64,000 nucleotides of DNA from Escherichia coli. Its GTDB lineage: Bacteria > Pseudomonadota > Gammaproteobacteria > Enterobacterales > Enterobacteriaceae. Under the pieces are notes generated by a model. It saw only the letters and a list, made by a program, of their open reading frames with translations, made no database searches and was not told the DNA's origin. Every line of letters begins with the position of its first letter. Position 1 is the stretch's first letter. Location of the stretch: the NCBI RefSeq assembly GCF_050920415.1, contig NZ_CP169309.1; one strand, 5' to 3'. A program made the position numbers and the translations under genes. Below, in pieces: positions 9,411 through 26,131 of the stretch.

Positions 9411-12400
9411 ATGAGTAAACTTTTGGATCGCTTTCGCTACTTCAAACAAAAGGGCGAAACATTTGCCGATGGTCACGGCCAGGTGATGCATAGCAACCGC
9501 GACTGGGAGGACAGCTATCGCCAGCGTTGGCAGTTCGACAAAATCGTGCGTTCCACTCACGGCGTTAACTGTACAGGCTCCTGTAGCTGGAAAATCTACG
9601 TTAAAAATGGCCTGGTGACCTGGGAAATCCAACAGACCGACTATCCTCGCACTCGCCCTGACCTGCCCAATCATGAACCTCGCGGCTGCCCGCGTGGTGC
9701 AAGTTACTCCTGGTATCTTTACAGCGCCAACCGACTGAAATACCCGCTAATACGTAAACGACTGATTGAACTGTGGCGTGAAGCGCTCAAGCAACACAGC
9801 GATCCGGTACTGGCGTGGGCATCGATTATGAATGATCCGCAAAAGTGCATGAGTTACAAGCAGATACGCGGACGCGGCGGTTTTATCCGCTCCAACTGGC
9901 AAGAGCTAAACCAGTTGATTGCTGCCGCTAACGTCTGGACCATCAAAACCTACGGCCCGGATCGCGTTGCCGGTTTCTCGCCGATTCCAGCCATGTCAAT
10001 GGTTTCTTACGCCGCCGGAACACGCTATCTGTCGCTGTTAGGTGGCACCTGTTTAAGCTTCTACGACTGGTATTGCGACCTGCCGCCCGCCTCACCGATG
10101 ACCTGGGGCGAACAAACCGACGTGCCAGAATCTGCCGACTGGTATAACTCCAGCTACATCATCGCCTGGGGGTCTAACGTACCGCAGACACGTACGCCGG
10201 ACGCCCACTTTTTTACCGAAGTACGCTACAAAGGCACTAAAACCATCGCCATTACCCCTGACTACTCTGAAGTGGCCAAATTGTGCGACCAGTGGCTGGC
10301 ACCGAAACAAGGCACTGATAGCGCCCTGGCGATGGCAATGGGCCATGTGATTTTAAAAGAGTTCCATCTCGATAATCCCAGCGACTATTTTATCAACTAC
10401 TGCCGCCGCTACAGCGACATGCCGATGCTGGTAATGCTGGAACCTCGCGACGATGGTAGCTACGTTCCCGGGCGCATGATCCGCGCGTCTGACCTGGTAG
10501 ATGGGCTGGGCGAAAGCAACAATCCGCAGTGGAAAACCGTAGCAGTTAATACAGCAGGTGAACTGGTGGTGCCGAACGGTTCGATTGGTTTTCGCTGGGG
10601 AGAAAAAGGCAAATGGAATCTGGAATCCATTGCCGCCGGTACGGAAACCGAATTGTCGTTAACTCTGCTCGGTCAACATGATGCCGTTGCAGGCGTGGCC
10701 TTCCCCTACTTTGGCGGCATTGAAAATCCGCATTTTCGCAGCGTAAAACACAATCCGGTCCTGGTGCGCCAATTGCCCGTTAAAAACCTGACATTAGCCG
10801 ATGGCAACACCTGTCCGGTCGTCAGCGTTTATGATTTGGTACTGGCGAATTATGGCCTCGATCGCGGGCTGGAAGATGAAAACAGCGCGAAAGATTACGC
10901 TGAAATTAAACCTTACACCCCTGCCTGGGGCGAGCAAATTACCGGCGTACCGCGCCAGTATATTGAAACCATCGCCCGTGAATTTGCCGATACCGCCCAT
11001 AAAACGCATGGGCGCTCGATGATTATCCTCGGTGCTGGCGTCAACCATTGGTATCACATGGACATGAACTACCGTGGGATGATCAACATGCTGATCTTCT
11101 GCGGTTGTGTCGGCCAAAGCGGTGGCGGCTGGGCACACTATGTCGGTCAGGAAAAACTGCGCCCGCAAACCGGCTGGTTGCCGCTGGCCTTTGCGCTCGA
11201 CTGGAACCGACCACCGCGCCAGATGAACAGCACCTCGTTTTTCTACAATCATTCCAGCCAATGGCGCTATGAAAAAGTCTCTGCTCAGGAGTTACTTTCA
11301 CCGCTCGCCGATGCCAGTAAGTACAGCGGTCATCTGATTGATTTCAACGTTCGCGCCGAACGTATGGGCTGGCTACCTTCTGCGCCGCAGCTGGGGCGTA
11401 ACCCGCTCGGGATTAAAGCTGAAGCCGACAAGGCCGGATTATCCCCCACAGAATTTACCGCTCAGGCGCTGAAATCGGGCGATTTACGTATGGCCTGCGA
11501 ACAACCAGATAGCGGCAGCAATCATCCGCGTAATTTGTTTGTCTGGCGTTCTAACCTGCTTGGCTCCTCCGGCAAAGGCCACGAATATATGCAGAAGTAT
11601 CTGCTGGGAACCGAAAGTGGGATTCAGGGTGAGGAACTCGGTGCCAGCGACGGGATCAAACCAGAAGAAGTCGAGTGGCAAACTGCGGCGATTGAAGGCA
11701 AGCTCGACCTGCTGGTGACGCTCGACTTCCGTATGTCCAGTACCTGCCTGTTCTCCGATATCGTTCTGCCCACCGCCACCTGGTACGAAAAAGACGATAT
11801 GAACACCTCGGATATGCATCCGTTTATTCATCCGCTTTCTGCGGCGGTCGATCCGGCGTGGGAATCACGCAGCGACTGGGAAATCTACAAAGGTATTGCC
11901 AAAGCATTTTCGCAAGTGTGCGTAGGGCATCTAGGCAAAGAAACCGACGTGGTATTACAACCCCTACTGCATGACTCTCCGGCAGAGCTTTCGCAGCCGT
12001 GTGAAGTGCTCGACTGGCGCAAAGGCGAATGCGATCTGATCCCGGGTAAAACCGCGCCCAATATTGTGGCAGTGGAGCGTGACTACCCTGCTACCTATGA
12101 ACGCTTTACCTCTCTCGGGCCATTGATGGACAAACTTGGCAACGGCGGTAAAGGGATTTCGTGGAATACCCAGGATGAAATCGATTTCCTCGGCAAACTC
12201 AATTACACCAAGCGTGATGGCCCGGCACAGGGGCGACCGCTGATTGACACCGCCATTGACGCATCAGAAGTGATTCTGGCGCTGGCACCGGAAACCAACG
12301 GTCATGTTGCAGTCAAAGCGTGGCAGGCGCTGGGCGAGATCACCGGACGCGAACATACCCATCTGGCGCTGCACAAAGAGGACGAAAAGATCCGCTTTCG

Positions 12401-18760: not shown

Positions 18761-19156
18761 CTACAGCGTCATCACATTATTCAGCCGCCCTTCAAAATAA
18801 ATAGCTAACTGTGACAATGTCAAATTCCAGCTCTGAACTGGCATTGTCCATTTTTTCTGCGCATTCATCAGTCCCAGGTAAAGTAGCTTCAACAGGCTGT
18901 TTTCATTCGGGAAGGCACCTTTTGTTTTGGTCAGCTTTCTGAACTGCCGGTGAACTGACTCGATAGCATTGGTCGTGTAAATCACCTTACGGATACCCGC
19001 CGGATAACGGAAGTAATGCGACAGATTTTCCCATTTTCGCCGCCACGACTGAAGCACCACCGGATACTGCTGACCCCATTTCGCCTCCAGCTCGTCCAGC
19101 GCTGTTTCTGCCGCCTCCTTCGATACCGCACGGTACACCGGTTTCAGGTCGGCCAT
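18761..19156 (-). pseudogene. IS256-family (mutator-type) transposase, C-terminal fragment only
   Basis: 131-aa ORF with the family C-terminal signature ...IYTTNAIESVHRQFRKLTKTKGAFPNENSLLKLLYLGL...KKWTMPVQSWN...; the N-terminal ~270 aa are missing and the fragment abuts the ISAs1 ORF. Confidence 0.7.
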
Positions 19157-19159
19157 GAG

Positions 19160-20400
19160 CCAGGGAAAGATTACGAAAGCCCGCTCCCCGCAAGGACTGA
19201 CGCCAGATACTTTCTGTCCATGGCTGCTTTTCGCATCTTACGTCTTAACCCTGCCTTGAATACCTTATCATTCGTCAAAATATTAATAGCGATGTGCCGT
19301 ATCCCTGAAAATAATTCTGCTGCATTTCCTCTTCTTATTTTGCAGTCGTCTTCATTCATTACCACGTCCAGACGCCAGTGCAGCTTATTCTCCACGTGCC
19401 AGTGATTTCGGATCGCTGTGGCGAACTTCTCTGCGGTTAAATCAGCAGAACTGATATAATATCTGACCGTCATTTCTGGCTCTTTCTTTTGTTCTGCTAT
19501 TATTGACCGAAAGGAGACTGCCACGCATAATTTCTTCAGACCTTTCCATTCAAACGTGAAATCAATAAGTTCATCAGGGACATCGCAAACAATATGAAGA
19601 CGGATTTCTTCTCTGCCGTGACTCTTTTCACTAATTGCGTAACTGTCATGCTCTGGATTATTTAATTCTTTCAGCGGAAATTTTTCCTCGAAGGCTTTAT
19701 TTAGCCGCCCCTGGTTTCCTTTTACAGCGAATAAATAATCACCTCCCTGTTTTTGTATCTTCTCTGCAATATCTTTCTGGCAACCCATCGCATCAGTTGT
19801 GATGATTTTTCCTTTAATATCCAGCATGTTAAGAAGTTCTGGGATAGCTGTAATCTCATTGGATTTCTCATCCGTCTTGATCTGTCCGATGACCAGACTG
19901 TGCATTGTTGAGAACGCACTAATGACATGAATCGCTCCCCTGCGGCGACTCTTGTCATAAGAGTGCCGGAGCGTTTTTCCATCAATTGCAATGACGTCTT
20001 TATCATCTGAAGAATGACATTCACGCATCCGGTTAATAAAGCATTCGTGAAATTTTGCAGGACTGATACATGATACAACTCTGGCAATAGTATCGTGAAC
20101 AGGAATACCATTTTCAAAATCACCATATTGCTTCAAAAAATCGAGATGAGTTTCCCCGAAATCCTCTATATCTTCCCAGCCTTCTGCACCCGAAATAACG
20201 GCGCAAATAGTCAACAGTAGAATATCCGATAATTTATGCTCCACTTTCCAGGCTTGTCTGTAATCGGGGATAATAGAAATATGTTCCATCAATTTTTTAA
20301 GTTCCATTTTGTTCTCCTTAATTATGTAAGGAGTATTTGATCATGTATAAGCAATAAAAAACAGCTTCAGGTAATGAGGAATATCTCAATTTTTAAACAT
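19160..20400 (-). mobile_element. ISAs1-family (H-repeat) element; ends not resolved
   Basis: Inferred from the transposase ORF; terminal inverted repeats were not identified by eye. Confidence 0.45.
19171..20307 (-). CDS. ISAs1-family transposase (H-repeat-associated protein, YdcC-like), intact
   Basis: 378-aa [65 protein letters not shown]...; matches the H-repeat protein family. Confidence 0.85.
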
Positions 20401-20476
20401 AAAATGCGAATTGTTTAGTACAAAAAAGCAGCGTTAAGTGAGTAGGCCACCGGAACCTCCCCGACAGCCTCTCGCA

Positions 20477-20510
20477 GAACCGTACGTGAAACTCTCGCTT
20501 CATACGGCTC
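20477..20510 (-). ncRNA. Group II intron domain V (catalytic hairpin)
   Basis: Minus strand reads GAGCCGTATGAAGCGAGAGTTTCACGTACGGTTC: AGC triad, GAGA GNRA loop, flanking GAGC/GTTC helix. Confidence 0.8.
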
Positions 20511-20513
20511 CCG

Positions 20514-21836
20514 TCAGGCAAACGCGCTTCCTGGTCCTGCTTTCCAGTGGGCAAACAACTCCGGCTTCTCTTTTGACAGTCTTTCCATTAGCTGACACGC
20601 CTTCGTCTTTCTATACCACAGGGTTTTATATTTCTTTCTCGCCCACGCAATCAGCGTCAGATTAATATATCTGCATACTTTCTTCATCGCTGATTTGTGG
20701 TATCTCGCGTAATAATTCAGCCACCCCGATATTATCAGATTCAGCCACTTCGCAATATCTTCGAGACTCATCTCCACCCTGCGTCTGATCCACAGTTTCC
20801 TGAGTTTTCCAATCATGCCTTTCTGCGCACGGTTACTCGCCGCCGGGCTGAAACTCGTAAAGAGGTTTCCCCGCCGGTGGTTACGTGCTCTTCGCGCTCT
20901 GAACGTATACCCCAGAAAATCAAACTGCACTGTTTCATGGTTCGCCTGTCGTTCGCTGTCTTTGCAGTAAACTATTTTCGTTTTCTCCGGATGTAATTCC
21001 AGTCCACATTCCTGAAAACGTTTTGCCAGCTTATTCAGTAATTCCTCTGCCTGTTGTTTACTGCCACAATGAATTAATCCATCATCTGCATAACGGCACC
21101 AGGGAATTTCCGGATAATGTAACGTCAGCCATTTATCAAACACATAGTGCAGAAATAAATTCGCCAGTACCGGGCTGATGACTCCACCCTGTGGCGTACC
21201 TTTATTTCTTTCCTTCAGTGTTCCATCCGGCATCTGCACCGGCGCTGTCAGCCAGCGGCGAATAGACAGTCTTACCCATTTATCCGCACAATGTTTATCT
21301 ACTGCCCTGAGTAATAAATCGTGGGGGATATTATCGAATAACCCTTTAATATCAAACTCAAGACACCAGTCGTATTGCCAGCAACGTTTTCTGGTGACTG
21401 CTATTGCATCCAGCGCTGATTTTCCATGCCGGTATCCGTATGAATCATTCAGGAAATAACGCTCCACTAATGGTTCAAACGTTACCAGCACCGTCATCTG
21501 CGCTATTCTATCGCTTACTGTCGGTATTCCTAAAAGTCTTTTGCTGCCATCCTTCTTCGGAATTTCCACCGCACGCACTGGCGGCGGCATCCAGCTTCCC
21601 GACGATAACCTGTTCCAGATTTTGTACAGATTTCCTTTCAGATCCCGCTCAAAATCTTTCAGCGTCTGGTTATCCACTCCGGCAGCTCCGGCATTCGCCT
21701 TTATCCGCCGGTACGCTTCCACCACATGCAATTTACTGACCTGAAACGGTTTTGTCTGTTCACACACAGTCTCCTCCTGCCTACAGTTGGGCTGTGATGC
21801 AGACTGCCCGACGCTGTCCCTTCGCTCCACGTTCAT
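20514..21836 (-). CDS. Group II intron reverse transcriptase/maturase, no endonuclease domain
   Basis: Track ORF 20514..22031; RT domain 0 at LHVVEAYRRIKANAGAAGVDNQT, fingers GTPQGGVISPVLANLFL, palm WCRYADDGLIHCGS (YADD), C-terminal X/maturase-like block GWLNYYARYH; likely start near MNVERRDSV. Confidence 0.85.
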   Translation of the reverse strand: MNVERRDSVGQSASQPNCRQEETVCEQTKPFQVSKLHVVEAYRRIKANAGAAGVDNQTLKDFERDLKGNLYKIWNRLSSGSWMPPPVRAVEIPKKDGSKRLLGIPTVSDRIAQMTVLVTFEPLVERYFLNDSYGYRHGKSALDAIAVTRKRCWQYDWCLEFDIKGLFDNIPHDLLLRAVDKHCADKWVRLSIRRWLTAPVQMPDGTLKERNKGTPQGGVISPVLANLFLHYVFDKWLTLHYPEIPWCRYADDGLIHCGSKQQAEELLNKLAKRFQECGLELHPEKTKIVYCKDSERQANHETVQFDFLGYTFRARRARNHRRGNLFTSFSPAASNRAQKGMIGKLRKLWIRRRVEMSLEDIAKWLNLIISGWLNYYARYHKSAMKKVCRYINLTLIAWARKKYKTLWYRKTKACQLMERLSKEKPELFAHWKAGPGSAFA

Positions 21837-22398
21837 TACAAACGCTTCCTCACTACTACGAACAGCTCTGCCCCGGTTTCGCACATCGATACTCTCATAC
21901 TCATAATTTCGGTTATTTGTAATTCTCTCTTGACATTGCGACGACCGGTTCCCGTAGTTCCTGCAAAGAGCCCGATACAGCGTCATGCCTGCTATACACC
22001 GGACATCATTCACGCAGCATTCGGAATTCACCCGTAAATTAATCCCGGCGGTATCACGAAACCTCCGGTTTTGATGTCACTTAGGACTAACGACGTTTCA
22101 ACACAGGTTCGGGTTTACTCATCTCACTGTATCTCACATAGGATCAGATCTCGTCTGATCGTTCCCCCTGCGCTCACTACCATGGCTCTTTACCACAGCA
22201 GCCGGGGTTGTTTGGGACCGACTTCCGACAGCAGATCCCGGTGGGCCTGCCACCATCTCTTCACAAGCTTATGCTTATTACATGCAAAACGTCCCGTTTT
22301 GCATCTTTGTGCCTACGGCACACCGTGATCTTTCCCTGGGAATAAAAGAAAGTTCACTGTAGTTATTAATGATATTTACTTCTTCATTCATATTTTAC

Positions 22399-22788
22399 CT
22401 ATTTAGAAAAACATATGCTCGCTTCCTCCGTGATAGAGATAACATAATCAGGTATTATTTCAAATACAGGAGTAATTAAGTATGGTCTGGAGTAACCATT
22501 ATTAAAATCCACACTATCAACTAAAAAACTAATAATGCTATCTTTGTCAGAAACAATCAATGATTCTCGGTAATAAGTTTTTTTACCTTTATTTCTCACA
22601 ATATTCAGTGCAATGTAGAATCTATCGTCTATCATAATGTCAGAAAGATTTTTAACATGATCTACCCAAGTGATGCTTCGACATTGCTCTTTTTTATTGA
22701 GCATTGCAAAAAAAATATCTTCTTTCACTTTCTCACTTGGTAACTGACTTAAAGGTTTTATACCTGTAAATATAAATTTAGTTTTCAT
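22399..22788 (-). CDS. Hypothetical protein, AT-rich orphan ORF (129 aa)
   Basis: Open frame in strongly AT-rich DNA (stop codons are AT-rich, so long ORFs here are non-random); no recognisable motif. Confidence 0.5.
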   Translation of the reverse strand: MKTKFIFTGIKPLSQLPSEKVKEDIFFAMLNKKEQCRSITWVDHVKNLSDIMIDDRFYIALNIVRNKGKKTYYRESLIVSDKDSIISFLVDSVDFNNGYSRPYLITPVFEIIPDYVISITEEASICFSK

Positions 22789-22818
22789 ATTGGCTAATTC
22801 GTTTGAAGAGTTGCTACT

Positions 22819-23241
22819 TTATTCAATCCAGTAAGCTAGTCGCTCTCCAGAACTTAGATTTTCCCTTTTGTAATAAAATACCGTATCGAAATTAAGTGAA
22901 ATGTTTGCCGCTATAACTTTAAACTGTAATATTGACTCGGAATAAAACTCGAGAATAATATTAGCATCATTATCATCGTTAATTATTTTTAGTTTCATAA
23001 AATCATCAAGAGGATCACAAGTCCAGTGCGTATCACCACTCATGTAAGATGGTGCATTTATTATTATTTCAAAATTATGATAGTACGAAAGATCACTACT
23101 GCCAACGATAATTAATCGCCCATTACTATAGAGATAAATTTCAAAATCTATCCAACAGTTATTTCTGTAATTACGCCTAATTTCGTCCACTACATTTTGT
23201 TGTTTCATTTTGGATTCTTGTAAAAGATAATTACTACGCAT
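22819..23241 (-). CDS. Hypothetical protein, AT-rich orphan ORF (140 aa; alternative start MKQQNVVDEIRR near 23208)
   Basis: Co-directional with neighbours; no recognisable motif. Confidence 0.5.
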   Translation of the reverse strand: MRSNYLLQESKMKQQNVVDEIRRNYRNNCWIDFEIYLYSNGRLIIVGSSDLSYYHNFEIIINAPSYMSGDTHWTCDPLDDFMKLKIINDDNDANIILEFYSESILQFKVIAANISLNFDTVFYYKRENLSSGERLAYWIE

Positions 23242-23285
23242 TGACTAAGTGAAATATTATCTTCTATAGATCGTATCTGTAAAAT

Positions 23286-23618
23286 TTAAAATGTGTTAAC
23301 TTCACTTCTTAATAATACAAATTCCTCCAGGCTTAATATTTTATTTTTTAATTCATCATGCCTGATCGTATCATTGATATAGAGAAGATAAGTATACTCA
23401 GGATAATCGACCTCATCCACTACGCCATCCAAAACATCATAATTTTCTTTTAGAAGAAAATGTTCATGTCTTTTGTCTCCGGGCAATAAATAGATTCCGC
23501 CATAATAAAGGCTTTCTTTCTCTTTAAATGTGATTTTTATCAGATCTTCTAACATCTTCTGCGCATCATATATTTCCACCCCATAATATCCATACAAGTC
23601 ATAATAACCCATTCCCAT
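23286..23618 (-). CDS. Hypothetical acidic protein, AT-rich orphan ORF (110 aa)
   Basis: Tyr/Glu/Asp-rich small protein; no recognisable motif. Confidence 0.45.
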   Translation of the reverse strand: MGMGYYDLYGYYGVEIYDAQKMLEDLIKITFKEKESLYYGGIYLLPGDKRHEHFLLKENYDVLDGVVDEVDYPEYTYLLYINDTIRHDELKNKILSLEEFVLLRSEVNTF

Positions 23619-23639
23619 TTCACCTGTTTGAATTTGTAT

Positions 23640-23840
23640 TCATTCACCCTCACGGGATTTACCAATTACATTCAGCAGTGGCATTAAATGTAATGTTACA
23701 AAACTATCACATCTTTCCTGAATTATCATTTGGATATAATGTTTTGTGTCATTGCTACCATATTCAGCCATATAGAATATTACTGCGTCCATTATATCTC
23801 TTTCATAGTTTTCTAATGCATCAACAAATACATCAACCAA
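23640..23840 (-). CDS. Hypothetical protein (66 aa, TTG start), possibly the 3' remnant of a gene disrupted upstream
   Basis: Short ORF lying 120 bp from the IS2 left end; low confidence. Confidence 0.35.
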   Translation of the reverse strand: MVDVFVDALENYERDIMDAVIFYMAEYGSNDTKHYIQMIIQERCDSFVTLHLMPLLNVIGKSREGE

Positions 23841-24050
23841 AGTATTAACGTCTTTACTTGATGGATGCTCTGAAAGATTATTTTCATTTGTGAGAATCTG
23901 AATCGTACCATTACGATTCTCTTAGAAATATCATTAAATACGCTACCGCCCTACCCTGATAGACTGGCCCCCTGAATCTCCAGACAACCAGTATCACTTA
24001 AATAAGTGATAGTCTTAATACTAGTTTTTAGACTAGTCATTGGAGAACAG

Positions 24051-24416
24051 ATGATTGATGTCTTAGGGCCGGAGAAACGCAGACGGCGTACCACACAGGA
24101 AAAGATCGCAATTGTTCAGCAGAGCTTTGAACCGGGGATGACGGTCTCCCTCGTTGCCCGGCAACATGGTGTAGCAGCCAGCCAGTTATTTCTCTGGCGT
24201 AAGCAATACCAGGAAGGAAGTCTTACTGCTGTCGCCGCCGGAGAACAGGTTGTTCCTGCCTCTGAACTTGCTGCCGCCATGAAGCAGATTAAAGAACTCC
24301 AGCGCCTGCTCGGCAAGAAAACGATGGAAAATGAACTCCTCAAAGAAGCCGTTGAATATGGACGGGCAAAAAAGTGGATAGCGCACGCGCCCTTATTGCC
24401 CGGGGATGGGGAGTAA
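24051..24416 (+). CDS. insC: IS2 transposase OrfA
   Basis: [56 protein letters not shown]... Confidence 0.95.
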
Positions 24417-25279
24417 GCTTAGTCAGCCGTTGTCTCCGGGTGTCGCGTGCGCAGTTGCACGTCATTCTCAGACGAACCGATGACTGGATGGATGGCCGCC
24501 GCAGTCGTCACACTGATGATACGGATGTGCTTCTCCGTATACACCATGTTATCGGAGAGCTGCCCACGTATGGTTATCGTCGGGTATGGGCGCTGCTTCG
24601 CAGACAGGCAGAACTTGATGGTATGCCTGCGATCAATGCCAAACGTGTTTACCGGATCATGCGCCAGAATGCGCTGTTGCTTGAGCGAAAACCTGCTGTA
24701 CCGCCATCGAAACGGGCACATACAGGCAGAGTGGCCGTGAAAGAAAGCAATCAGCGATGGTGCTCTGACGGGTTCGAGTTCTGCTGTGATAACGGAGAGA
24801 GACTGCGTGTCACGTTCGCGCTGGACTGCTGTGATCGTGAGGCACTGCACTGGGCGGTGACTACTGGCGGCTTCAACAGTGAAACAGTACAGGACGTCAT
24901 GCTGGGAGCGGTGGAACGCCGCTTCGGCAACGATCTTCCGTCGTCTCCAGTGGAGTGGCTGACGGATAATGGTTCATGCTACCGGGCTAATGAAACACGC
25001 CAGTTCGCCCGGATGTTGGGACTTGAACCGAAGAACACGGCGGTGCGGAGTCCGGAGAGTAACGGAATAGCAGAGAGCTTCGTGAAAACGATAAAGCGTG
25101 ACTACATCAGTATCATGCCCAAACCAGACGGGTTAACGGCAGCAAAGAACCTTGCAGAGGCGTTCGAGCATTATAACGAATGGCATCCGCATAGTGCGCT
25201 GGGTTATCGCTCGCCACGGGAATATCTGCGGCAGCGGGCTTGTAATGGGTTAAGTGATAACAGATGTCTGGAAATATAG
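24374..25279 (+). CDS. insD: IS2 transposase OrfB (DDE integrase domain)
   Basis: 301-aa [37 protein letters not shown]... overlapping insC in the -1 frame, as in IS3-family elements. Confidence 0.95.
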
Positions 25280-25513
25280 GGGCAAATCCACCTGATAACA
25301 TGATCTGCACTGCGTTATCATATCGACATGTTTCTCTATATGCGAAGAGATGTTTTATTTTCGGATTAAATTAAATTGATATTCAATATAAAATACAGAA
25401 TCACATCAGCGACATAAATAGTTGTAACAACTTCAATTACCATTCATAGCAAACAAATAGACGTCCAGTTAACTTTGCCGATGATTTATTAACATTAATC
25501 TCCGGCATTGTTG

Positions 25514-26131
25514 TTAAATAATGGCATTCCTTTTTAGTACTTCTTGTAACTTTGGTATCTGACATACAGCATCAGCAATCGCACTGATATTCGTGGCATT
25601 ATCCTGAAACCATTCATGCCCAGGCCCCCATGTGCGCATTGTGCAAAGATAACAGTCCACCAGCGTGAGTTGCTCTCCAAACACATACGGTTCAGCAGTC
25701 AATTGTGAATTCAGCCAGATATAAAGCGATTTGCGATATTCAATAACATTCTTCTTCAACTGTTCAGGTGCGTCGGGGACCCAACGTTCAGGGTAATCGG
25801 CGAAGGTAAACGTTGGATAGACATTAGCGACCAGCCAGACCAATAGCCGTTGAAACTGCTGACGTTCGGCACGCCCAACTGGTGGCGCAAGATCCGGGCT
25901 GCGGTCGAGCACCATTAGCGCAATAGCCGCGCTTTCGGTCATAATCTCGCCATTTTCCAGCGCCAGTGTCGGAACCTGACATAGCGGATTGAGCTTTTGC
26001 AATAGCTCACGCGCAATACCTTCACTGTCAAAACCGCTGACATCAACAAACTTATAGGGAATATCTGCCAGCGTAAGCATGAGTTCGCTGATTGTAGAAC
26101 CCCATCCCGGCACGCCATACATCTTTAACAT
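25514..26131 (-). CDS. yncG: Glutathione S-transferase-like protein
   Basis: 205-aa ORF MLKMYGVPGWGSTISELMLTLADIPYKFVDV... Confidence 0.8.
   Translation of the reverse strand: MLKMYGVPGWGSTISELMLTLADIPYKFVDVSGFDSEGIARELLQKLNPLCQVPTLALENGEIMTESAAIALMVLDRSPDLAPPVGRAERQQFQRLLVWLVANVYPTFTFADYPERWVPDAPEQLKKNVIEYRKSLYIWLNSQLTAEPYVFGEQLTLVDCYLCTMRTWGPGHEWFQDNATNISAIADAVCQIPKLQEVLKRNAII

Follow-up and report, generated by a model that had tools for sequence, protein, structure and literature searches.

The subject of this analysis is a 64,000-nt stretch of the Escherichia coli contig NZ_CP169309.1 (assembly GCF_050920415.1), referred to in its entirety as the window, and within it an AT-rich array of four small, minus-strand open reading frames (ORFs), designated genes A to D. 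The frames had been singled out in an original prediction made from the sequence alone, and their coordinates and lengths were confirmed as follows:

Gene A: 23640-23840, minus strand, 66 amino acids (aa), TTG start (ORF listing)
Gene B: 23286-23618, minus strand, 110 aa as listed (ORF listing)
Gene C: 22819-23241, minus strand, 140 aa as listed (ORF listing)
Gene D: 22399-22788, minus strand, 129 aa (ORF listing)

The four co-oriented genes are separated by spacers of 21, 44, and 30 nt, and the GC fraction of the segment 22250-23900 is 0.29-0.33, as compared with about 0.47-0.57 in the flanks. Their products are recorded as "hypothetical proteins" in E. coli, Escherichia fergusonii, and cryptic Escherichia. 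We consider it likely that A-D are orphan immunity genes, arranged in tandem and unaccompanied by toxins, that are directed against Rhs-type polymorphic toxins. This reading is built upon the homology of the four genes to genes in the rhsI (immunity) position of four distinct Rhs toxin types, none of which is encoded in the window, together with the strain-to-strain modularity of the array and the fold match of the C protein.

Four genuine genes in the rhsE slot

A HMMER search with the concatenated A-D sequences against 1.84 billion representative proteins returned 356 matches at E<=1e-3, the best 150 of which are distributed by gene as 77 for B, 58 for C, 13 for D, and 2 for A; nearly all of these family members are stand-alone proteins of query-like length. 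Pairwise Nei-Gojobori comparison with E. fergusonii and MB53-type E. coli yielded ratios of nonsynonymous to synonymous divergence (dN/dS) of 0.24-0.28 for A, 0.19-0.20 for B, and 0.08-0.22 for C (the flanking core gene yncG gave 0.07), indicating that A-C have been under purifying selection across lineages. AlphaFold (AF2) models based on family alignments were confident, with predicted local distance difference test (pLDDT) scores of 94.2 for C and 90.6 for B. Given the distant relatives, the low dN/dS values, and the confident models, A-D are real genes, and spurious AT-rich ORFs are excluded.

Family alignments and RefSeq place the likely start of C at M12 (23208; 129 aa) and that of B at M3 (23612; 108 aa), the latter 8-9 nt past an AGGTGA Shine-Dalgarno sequence. 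Gene A corresponds to the 3' two-thirds of a frameshifted, 90-codon gene that extends over 23640-23913, whose ancestral ATG (23911-23913) is no longer in frame owing to the loss of 1 nt at 23886/23887 relative to the intact E. fergusonii and MB53 copies. Forms of A with 66 aa and with 90/111 aa both circulate in Escherichia. A terminator scan of the array predicted none, and a promoter scan gave only matches of the kind typical for AT-rich noise.

On the minus strand, the array occurs in the order ansP, yncG, IS2, A-B-C-D, group II intron, ISEc1 (ydcC, H-repeat), IS256 fragment, and yddH, and the same interval of K-12 reads yncG-yncH-rhsE'-ydcD-yncO-yncI'-ydcC-pptA-yddH. The window ceases to be homologous to K-12 precisely where yncG ends, and homology picks up again at ISEc1/ydcC; therefore, the array fills the K-12 rhsE slot, and the original prediction was right in placing an Rhs remnant at this point of the K-12 map, the remnant being the rhsE site. 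No similarity was detected between A-D and K-12 YncH or YdcD. Neither DP[LIVW]G[LW] nor YD-repeat motifs occur in any of the six frames of the whole 64-kb window, in a search that detected all of its positive controls (K-12 rhsE, the rhs gene of sequence type 648 (ST648) E. coli, and the rhs locus L028), which bears out the original observation that the region lacks an Rhs core and a DPxGL junction. The same holds for the reported lack of a catalytic motif, as no enzymatic or nucleic-acid-binding domain was detected in A-D.

Relatives of A-D behind Rhs toxins

Across about 12 inspected loci, homologs of all four families were seen in immunity position, that is, on the same strand and just 3' of, or overlapping, the stop codon of an Rhs gene with a C-terminal toxin domain (Rhs-CT), and each cognate CT follows a junction of the PxxxxDPxGL type. 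The A homolog P0163 of Escherichia marmotae (42% identity, 90 aa) starts 7 nt past an 860-aa Rhs protein with the junction 'YAPNPLTYIDPLGL', in a locus that holds further orphan rhs-CT/immunity modules. The B homolog P0112 of Hafnia paralvei (52% identity) lies 14 nt past an Rhs-CT with the junction 'YVPSPLTWGDPLGL'; this CT contains an in-frame TAA as well as a GS...DxD motif that suggests a resemblance to nucleotidyltransferases. The toxin upstream of a second B homolog, P0121 (44% identity), is 61% identical to the Hafnia toxin over its last 51 residues, and a remnant of the same toxin tip is fused in frame to a third, P0132. A further relative, P0247 (243 aa), joins an unknown 130-residue N-terminal domain to a B-family domain and may be a two-domain 'polyimmunity protein'.

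For C, there is a 4-nt overlap between the gene of a 129-aa homolog (55% identity) and the stop of a 4.85-kb rhs gene whose product is annotated as an RHS core protein; vgrG and a DcrB-like (chaperone) gene precede this rhs gene, and the vgrG-rhs-C-like arrangement is found in 121 of 5426 complete E. coli genomes. The junction of its CT is 'YVPNPLGYVDPLGL', and the CT itself matches Pfam Ntox30 with an independent E-value of 1.3e-11. Ntox30 has been predicted to be a metal-independent RNase, and no immunity family is listed for it (Zhang et al., PMC3482391). In E. coli ST648 (locus L024), the vgrG-rhs(Ntox30)-immunity genes are followed by an orphan rhs fragment ending in '...FTDPLGLGAC' and a frameshifted ISAs1/H-repeat (11346-11966 and 10011-11148), a typical displaced-tip architecture that is lacking in the window.

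The D homologs P0139 and P0161 (about 34% identity) start 2-3 nt past the stops of Rhs-CTs of the form '...YVHNPLGWIDPLGL...NRYKAHTQ...PEGGFGDTPHIKWYNNGTDGHIFYDIPN*', in which 'YVHNPLGWIDPLGL' is the junction. Two other D homologs, P0196 and P0237, are orphans to which the same toxin tip (75-77% identical) is fused in frame, and one of these two (locus L015) adjoins a Colicin_immun gene. Across the four D loci, identity is 75-88% among the toxin tips and about 30% among the immunity proteins; much stronger conservation of the tip than of the downstream immunity protein is the pattern expected for toxin/immunity pairs. Likewise, two B loci and one remnant share a toxin tip, so that immunity and toxin families co-vary for B and D; for A and C, one toxin type each was inspected. 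The three Rhs-CT domains cognate to the A, B, and D homologs have no Pfam, NCBIfam, or PDB-sequence match; they are located as follows:

CT domains cognate to A-, B-, and D-family homologs: L019 1-475; L034 1-165; L028 7560-7994; L029 ~3900-4285; L030 3-326

Library searches returned little for A-D themselves. Pfam gave no match for the four proteins or for the 143 family members scanned (73 B, 57 C, and 13 D), NCBIfam gave nothing above noise, and matches in PHROGs were negligible. In PADLOC, the sole match was that of A to NsnC (E=0.0013 over 42 residues, no partner genes). Profile hidden Markov models of curated immunity families (Pfam Imm1-74, SUKH, SMI1_KNR4, and Colicin_immun; NCBIfam) produced no significant match to A-D, and PDB sequence searches with profiles of B, C, and D and with three toxin CTs found no meaningful relative, a match to MpAFP among them having been rejected for want of an independent stretch.

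The structure model of C was more informative, as its best PDB match by two methods is PIM7 (PDB 8owu; Foldseek probability 1.00, template modeling (TM) score 0.52-0.57, E 0.04, with 7-8% sequence identity); the second-best match in both structure searches is an uncharacterized Neisseria gonorrhoeae protein. PIM7 is an immunity protein whose cognate is PT7, a polymorphic toxin of Bacillus cereus that it neutralized in vivo and with which it was co-crystallized (bioRxiv 10.1101/2021.10.19.465003). PT7 is an LXG toxin with DNase activity, the C family is instead paired with the predicted RNase Ntox30, and no profile match links C to PIM7; the likeness of the modeled C fold is accordingly fold-level support rather than family membership.

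Flanking elements and variability of the island

The array forms part of a larger AT-rich segment enclosed by mobile elements:

AT-rich island segment: 22339-23959, minus strand; 96.5% identity to the putative polyimmunity island of E. fergusonii (blastn), GC ~0.30, bounded by the intron and the IS2 insertion point
IS2 (1331 bp): 23960-25290, plus strand; secondary insertion with target-site duplication CCTGA at 23955-23959 and 25291-25295
Group II intron, complete: 20437-22338, minus strand; ltrA reverse transcriptase/maturase ORF at 20514-22031, Rfam RF01999 at 22137-22254, and RF00029 domain V/VI at 20437-20512
ISEc1/H-repeat (ydcC): 19160-20441, minus strand; 97% identical to K-12 ydcC, an Rhs-associated insertion sequence that also closes the K-12 rhsE locus
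IS256-family transposase fragment without N-terminus: 18761-19156, minus strand; between ISEc1 and yddH, where K-12 has pptA

The near end of IS2 (23960) lies 119 nt upstream of the TTG of A and 44-48 nt upstream of its ancestral ATG. Since the element is flanked by a 5-bp target duplication and the same region occurs at 100% identity and without IS2 in strain MFDS1022581, IS2 is a simple later insertion that deleted nothing. In all related genomes examined, moreover, the array directly follows yncG with no rhs gene between. The original suspicion that IS2 had removed the 5' context of the array was therefore misplaced; IS2 may, nonetheless, uncouple the array from its native promoter region and could either silence or re-drive it. 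On the other side, the intron begins (5' end) 60 nt beyond the stop codon of D and runs directly up to ISEc1/H-repeat at its 3' end. Homology to the E. fergusonii island stops at 22339, giving way to the intron and then ISEc1, so the island is cut short in the window. A stretch of ~40-47 nt at 22300-22346, spanning the inferred intron 5' end (22338), recurs in about 190 E. coli genomes.

The E. fergusonii island carries A-B-C-D at this very site, 96.5% identical at the nucleotide level, and continues with ORFs of 159, 111, and 129 aa (the last being Pfam Imm8) and of 42 and 131 aa; one or two ISEc1 copies come next, and after them ORFs of 65, 204 (SUKH_6/SMI1_KNR4), and 194 aa (SUKH-4), for a total of ~12 genes (A-D and eight more). 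In MB53-type E. coli (11 complete genomes), A-B-C are kept, and D is replaced by ORFs of 186 and 220 aa and a GNAT gene. Together with the A-B-C-D form of the window and MFDS1022581, these make up the three layouts seen, and the E. fergusonii and related islands contained no Rhs motif in any frame when searched with working positive controls. Of 5426 complete E. coli genomes, 12 contain the array, defined as A-B-C together. In the loci examined outside Escherichia, the four families were never together, each standing beside a different Rhs toxin.

Synonymous divergence (dS) of the island between lineages is 0.10-0.26, as opposed to 0.61 for yncG. The yncG gene of the window (25514-26131) is 97% identical to that of E. 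fergusonii and 85-87% identical to those of K-12 and MB53, and A-B-C are ~93% identical to their MB53 counterparts. An island less diverged than its flanking core gene suggests either lateral spread or a host that belongs to a divergent Escherichia lineage. No second C-like copy was found in any complete E. coli genome, including MFDS1022581, at a detection limit of >=65-70% nucleotide identity. None of the 12 genomes with the orphan C is among the 121 with the rhs-linked C-like gene, which is not significant against an expected overlap of ~0.3.

A probable immunity-only locus and what it may do

The array is most likely a heterogeneous 'polyimmunity' locus, in the terms of Zhang et al. (2012), situated at the rhsE recombination hotspot between yncG and ISEc1/H-repeat. 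It is read as immunity-only because all four families hold the immunity position elsewhere and because gaps of 21-44 nt leave no room for toxin fragments. Each protein would bind and neutralize its own type of Rhs-CT: A an uncharacterized CT, B the GS...DxD CT, C the predicted RNase Ntox30, and D an uncharacterized 'NRYKAHTQ...PEGG..H' CT. As the window encodes no cognate toxin, the likely role would be pre-emptive protection of the carrier from Rhs effectors delivered by non-kin Escherichia, Hafnia, and relatives armed with a type VI secretion system (T6SS); we infer likewise that the array may be expressed and may confer protection at present.

Several points weigh against this assignment. 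Toxin binding and protection by A-D are deduced from sequence relationships, and the recognition of extant toxins by proteins that are 30-55% identical to the toxin-linked ones is uncertain; C in particular shares only 55% identity with its rhs-linked E. coli relative, making cross-protection against the toxin of that locus uncertain. For A, B, and D, the toxin-linked examples inspected number one to four per family, and a C-like (P0111) and a D-like protein (P0114) stand alone among housekeeping genes, an observation that does not discriminate, as orphan immunity genes present the same picture. No Pfam, NCBIfam, or PDB sequence match marks A-D as immunity proteins, and the B model is a generic alpha+beta sandwich with no specific PDB match. 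As for the genes themselves, A is frameshifted, A, C, and D have weak ribosome-binding sites or none, some E. fergusonii copies of D are truncated, and D differs from its E. fergusonii counterpart by 0 synonymous and 4 nonsynonymous changes, too few to inform a selection test.

Some of these points bear on the state of the array rather than on its identity. With A frameshifted and IS2 placed between the array and the upstream intergenic region, the array is probably partly decayed in this strain. It is unlikely, in our estimation, that decay has gone so far as to leave a relic, of immunity descent and yet unexpressed or non-functional here, with its promoter cut by IS2, A frameshifted, and its 3' end truncated by the intron and ISEc1. 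The frameshift, the proximity of IS2 to the ancestral start, the poor Shine-Dalgarno sequences of A, C, and D, the 0 synonymous and 4 nonsynonymous changes of D, and the rarity of the array among complete genomes are what a relic would display; nevertheless, B, C, and D are intact and 100% identical in an independent IS2-free strain, and A-C bear the mark of purifying selection across lineages. Even a relic would be compatible with descent from an orphan immunity array, since that alternative is about the current condition of the genes.

It is very improbable that the four genes are orphan toxin/immunity pairs in which, for example, A or C represents a displaced Rhs tip and B and D the matching immunity genes. 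The rhsE site, the adjacency of A to B and of C to D, and the frequency with which Rhs loci end in displaced rhs-CT/rhsI orphan modules (PMC3150448, PMC3967940) make such pairs a natural first thought, and the original prediction had favored toxin/immunity modules of this kind. However, the relatives of A and of C themselves take the immunity position behind complete Rhs proteins, the fold of C matches that of an immunity protein, no ORF of the array has Rhs core homology or a DPxGL junction, nearly all family members are stand-alone proteins of equal length rather than C-termini of large proteins, and neither A nor C is related to the toxins that precede the B and D homologs (by tblastn in the case of the B toxin). 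What endures of the original proposal is the setting among Rhs polymorphic toxins and the presence of immunity genes; the displaced toxin tips do not, as all four families belong in immunity position. The specific notion that A is a C-terminal remnant of the toxin cognate to B was rejected, as the two share no similarity and the A homolog stands alone after a complete Rhs protein.

There is similarly little to recommend a single multi-gene system in which A-D act jointly, such as an anti-phage or abortive-infection operon: tight co-directional spacing, a variable and AT-rich island with mobile elements at its borders, and the joint occurrence of A-B-C in 12 complete E. coli genomes and E. fergusonii, would suit it, whereas the matches to PADLOC (marginal for A-NsnC) and PHROGs are without significance, the proteins have no detectable enzymatic or nucleic-acid-binding domains, D is replaceable (MB53-type), and the families occur apart outside Escherichia. 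The abortive-infection pair that had been offered as an alternative hence finds no support.

Orphan immunity genes and polyimmunity loci are already known as a kind of locus. Polyimmunity loci are co-oriented, close-set, and toxin-free, and gene content that varies between strains is a stated hallmark (PMC3482391). The array resembles them as a toxin-free tandem of co-oriented, unrelated, small immunity-type genes that varies between strains and has mobile elements alongside; with four genes, one of them frameshifted (A), it reaches the at least four genes of an 'extended' locus, and its E. fergusonii version includes the Pfam families Imm8 and SUKH. It departs from them in that its four families fall outside Pfam Imm/SUKH, in being short and partly decayed, and in its position at a former Rhs locus rather than beside a XerC/D recombinase. 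With orphan rhs-CT/rhsI modules (K-12 rhsE'-ydcD and Salmonella orphan Rhs; PMC3150448, PMC3967940), the array shares the K-12 rhsE site, the distal H-repeat/ISEc1, and rhsI-position homology; unlike such modules, it has no rhs core fragment, no PxxxxDPxGL, no CT toxin fragment, and no YdcD/YncH similarity, and it is not itself a module of this type. As core fragment and junction are missing, the re-arming of orphan toxins by recombination is impossible here.

Orphan T6SS immunity arrays were reportedly described in Vibrio cholerae by Kirchberger et al. in 2017, and the array concept is alike. The acquired interbacterial defence (AID) clusters of Bacteroidales are comparable as effector-free immunity arrays that spread laterally and act against the T6SS toxins of other strains and species (bioRxiv 10.1101/471110); in contrast, the present array belongs to another phylum, its toxin class is Rhs, no integrase was identified for the island, and protection is here deduced from the genes. 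We put forward, as a tentative proposal, that the yncG-yddH hotspot may house an 'acquired interbacterial defence' island that is free of toxins and exchanged laterally, an Enterobacteriaceae equivalent of the AID clusters, in which at least four uncurated immunity families could lend rare E. coli and E. fergusonii broad protection from Rhs/T6SS attack without the cognate toxins, three of the effectors concerned coming from undescribed toxin families.

New here are four immunity families that are present in no curated library and are paired with Rhs toxins, three of which have no family model, and the capacity of the rhsE hotspot to hold an immunity-only island common to E. fergusonii and rare E. 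coli. Four "hypothetical proteins" become immunity candidates, each paired with an Rhs toxin family of which only Ntox30 has a Pfam model, and seed alignments are provided for four immunity families and three toxin domains not represented in Pfam or NCBIfam. In summary, the polyimmunity and orphan-immunity framework is extended, not overturned, and the array may bear on the T6SS resistance of gut E. coli and E. fergusonii that carry no weapon of their own.

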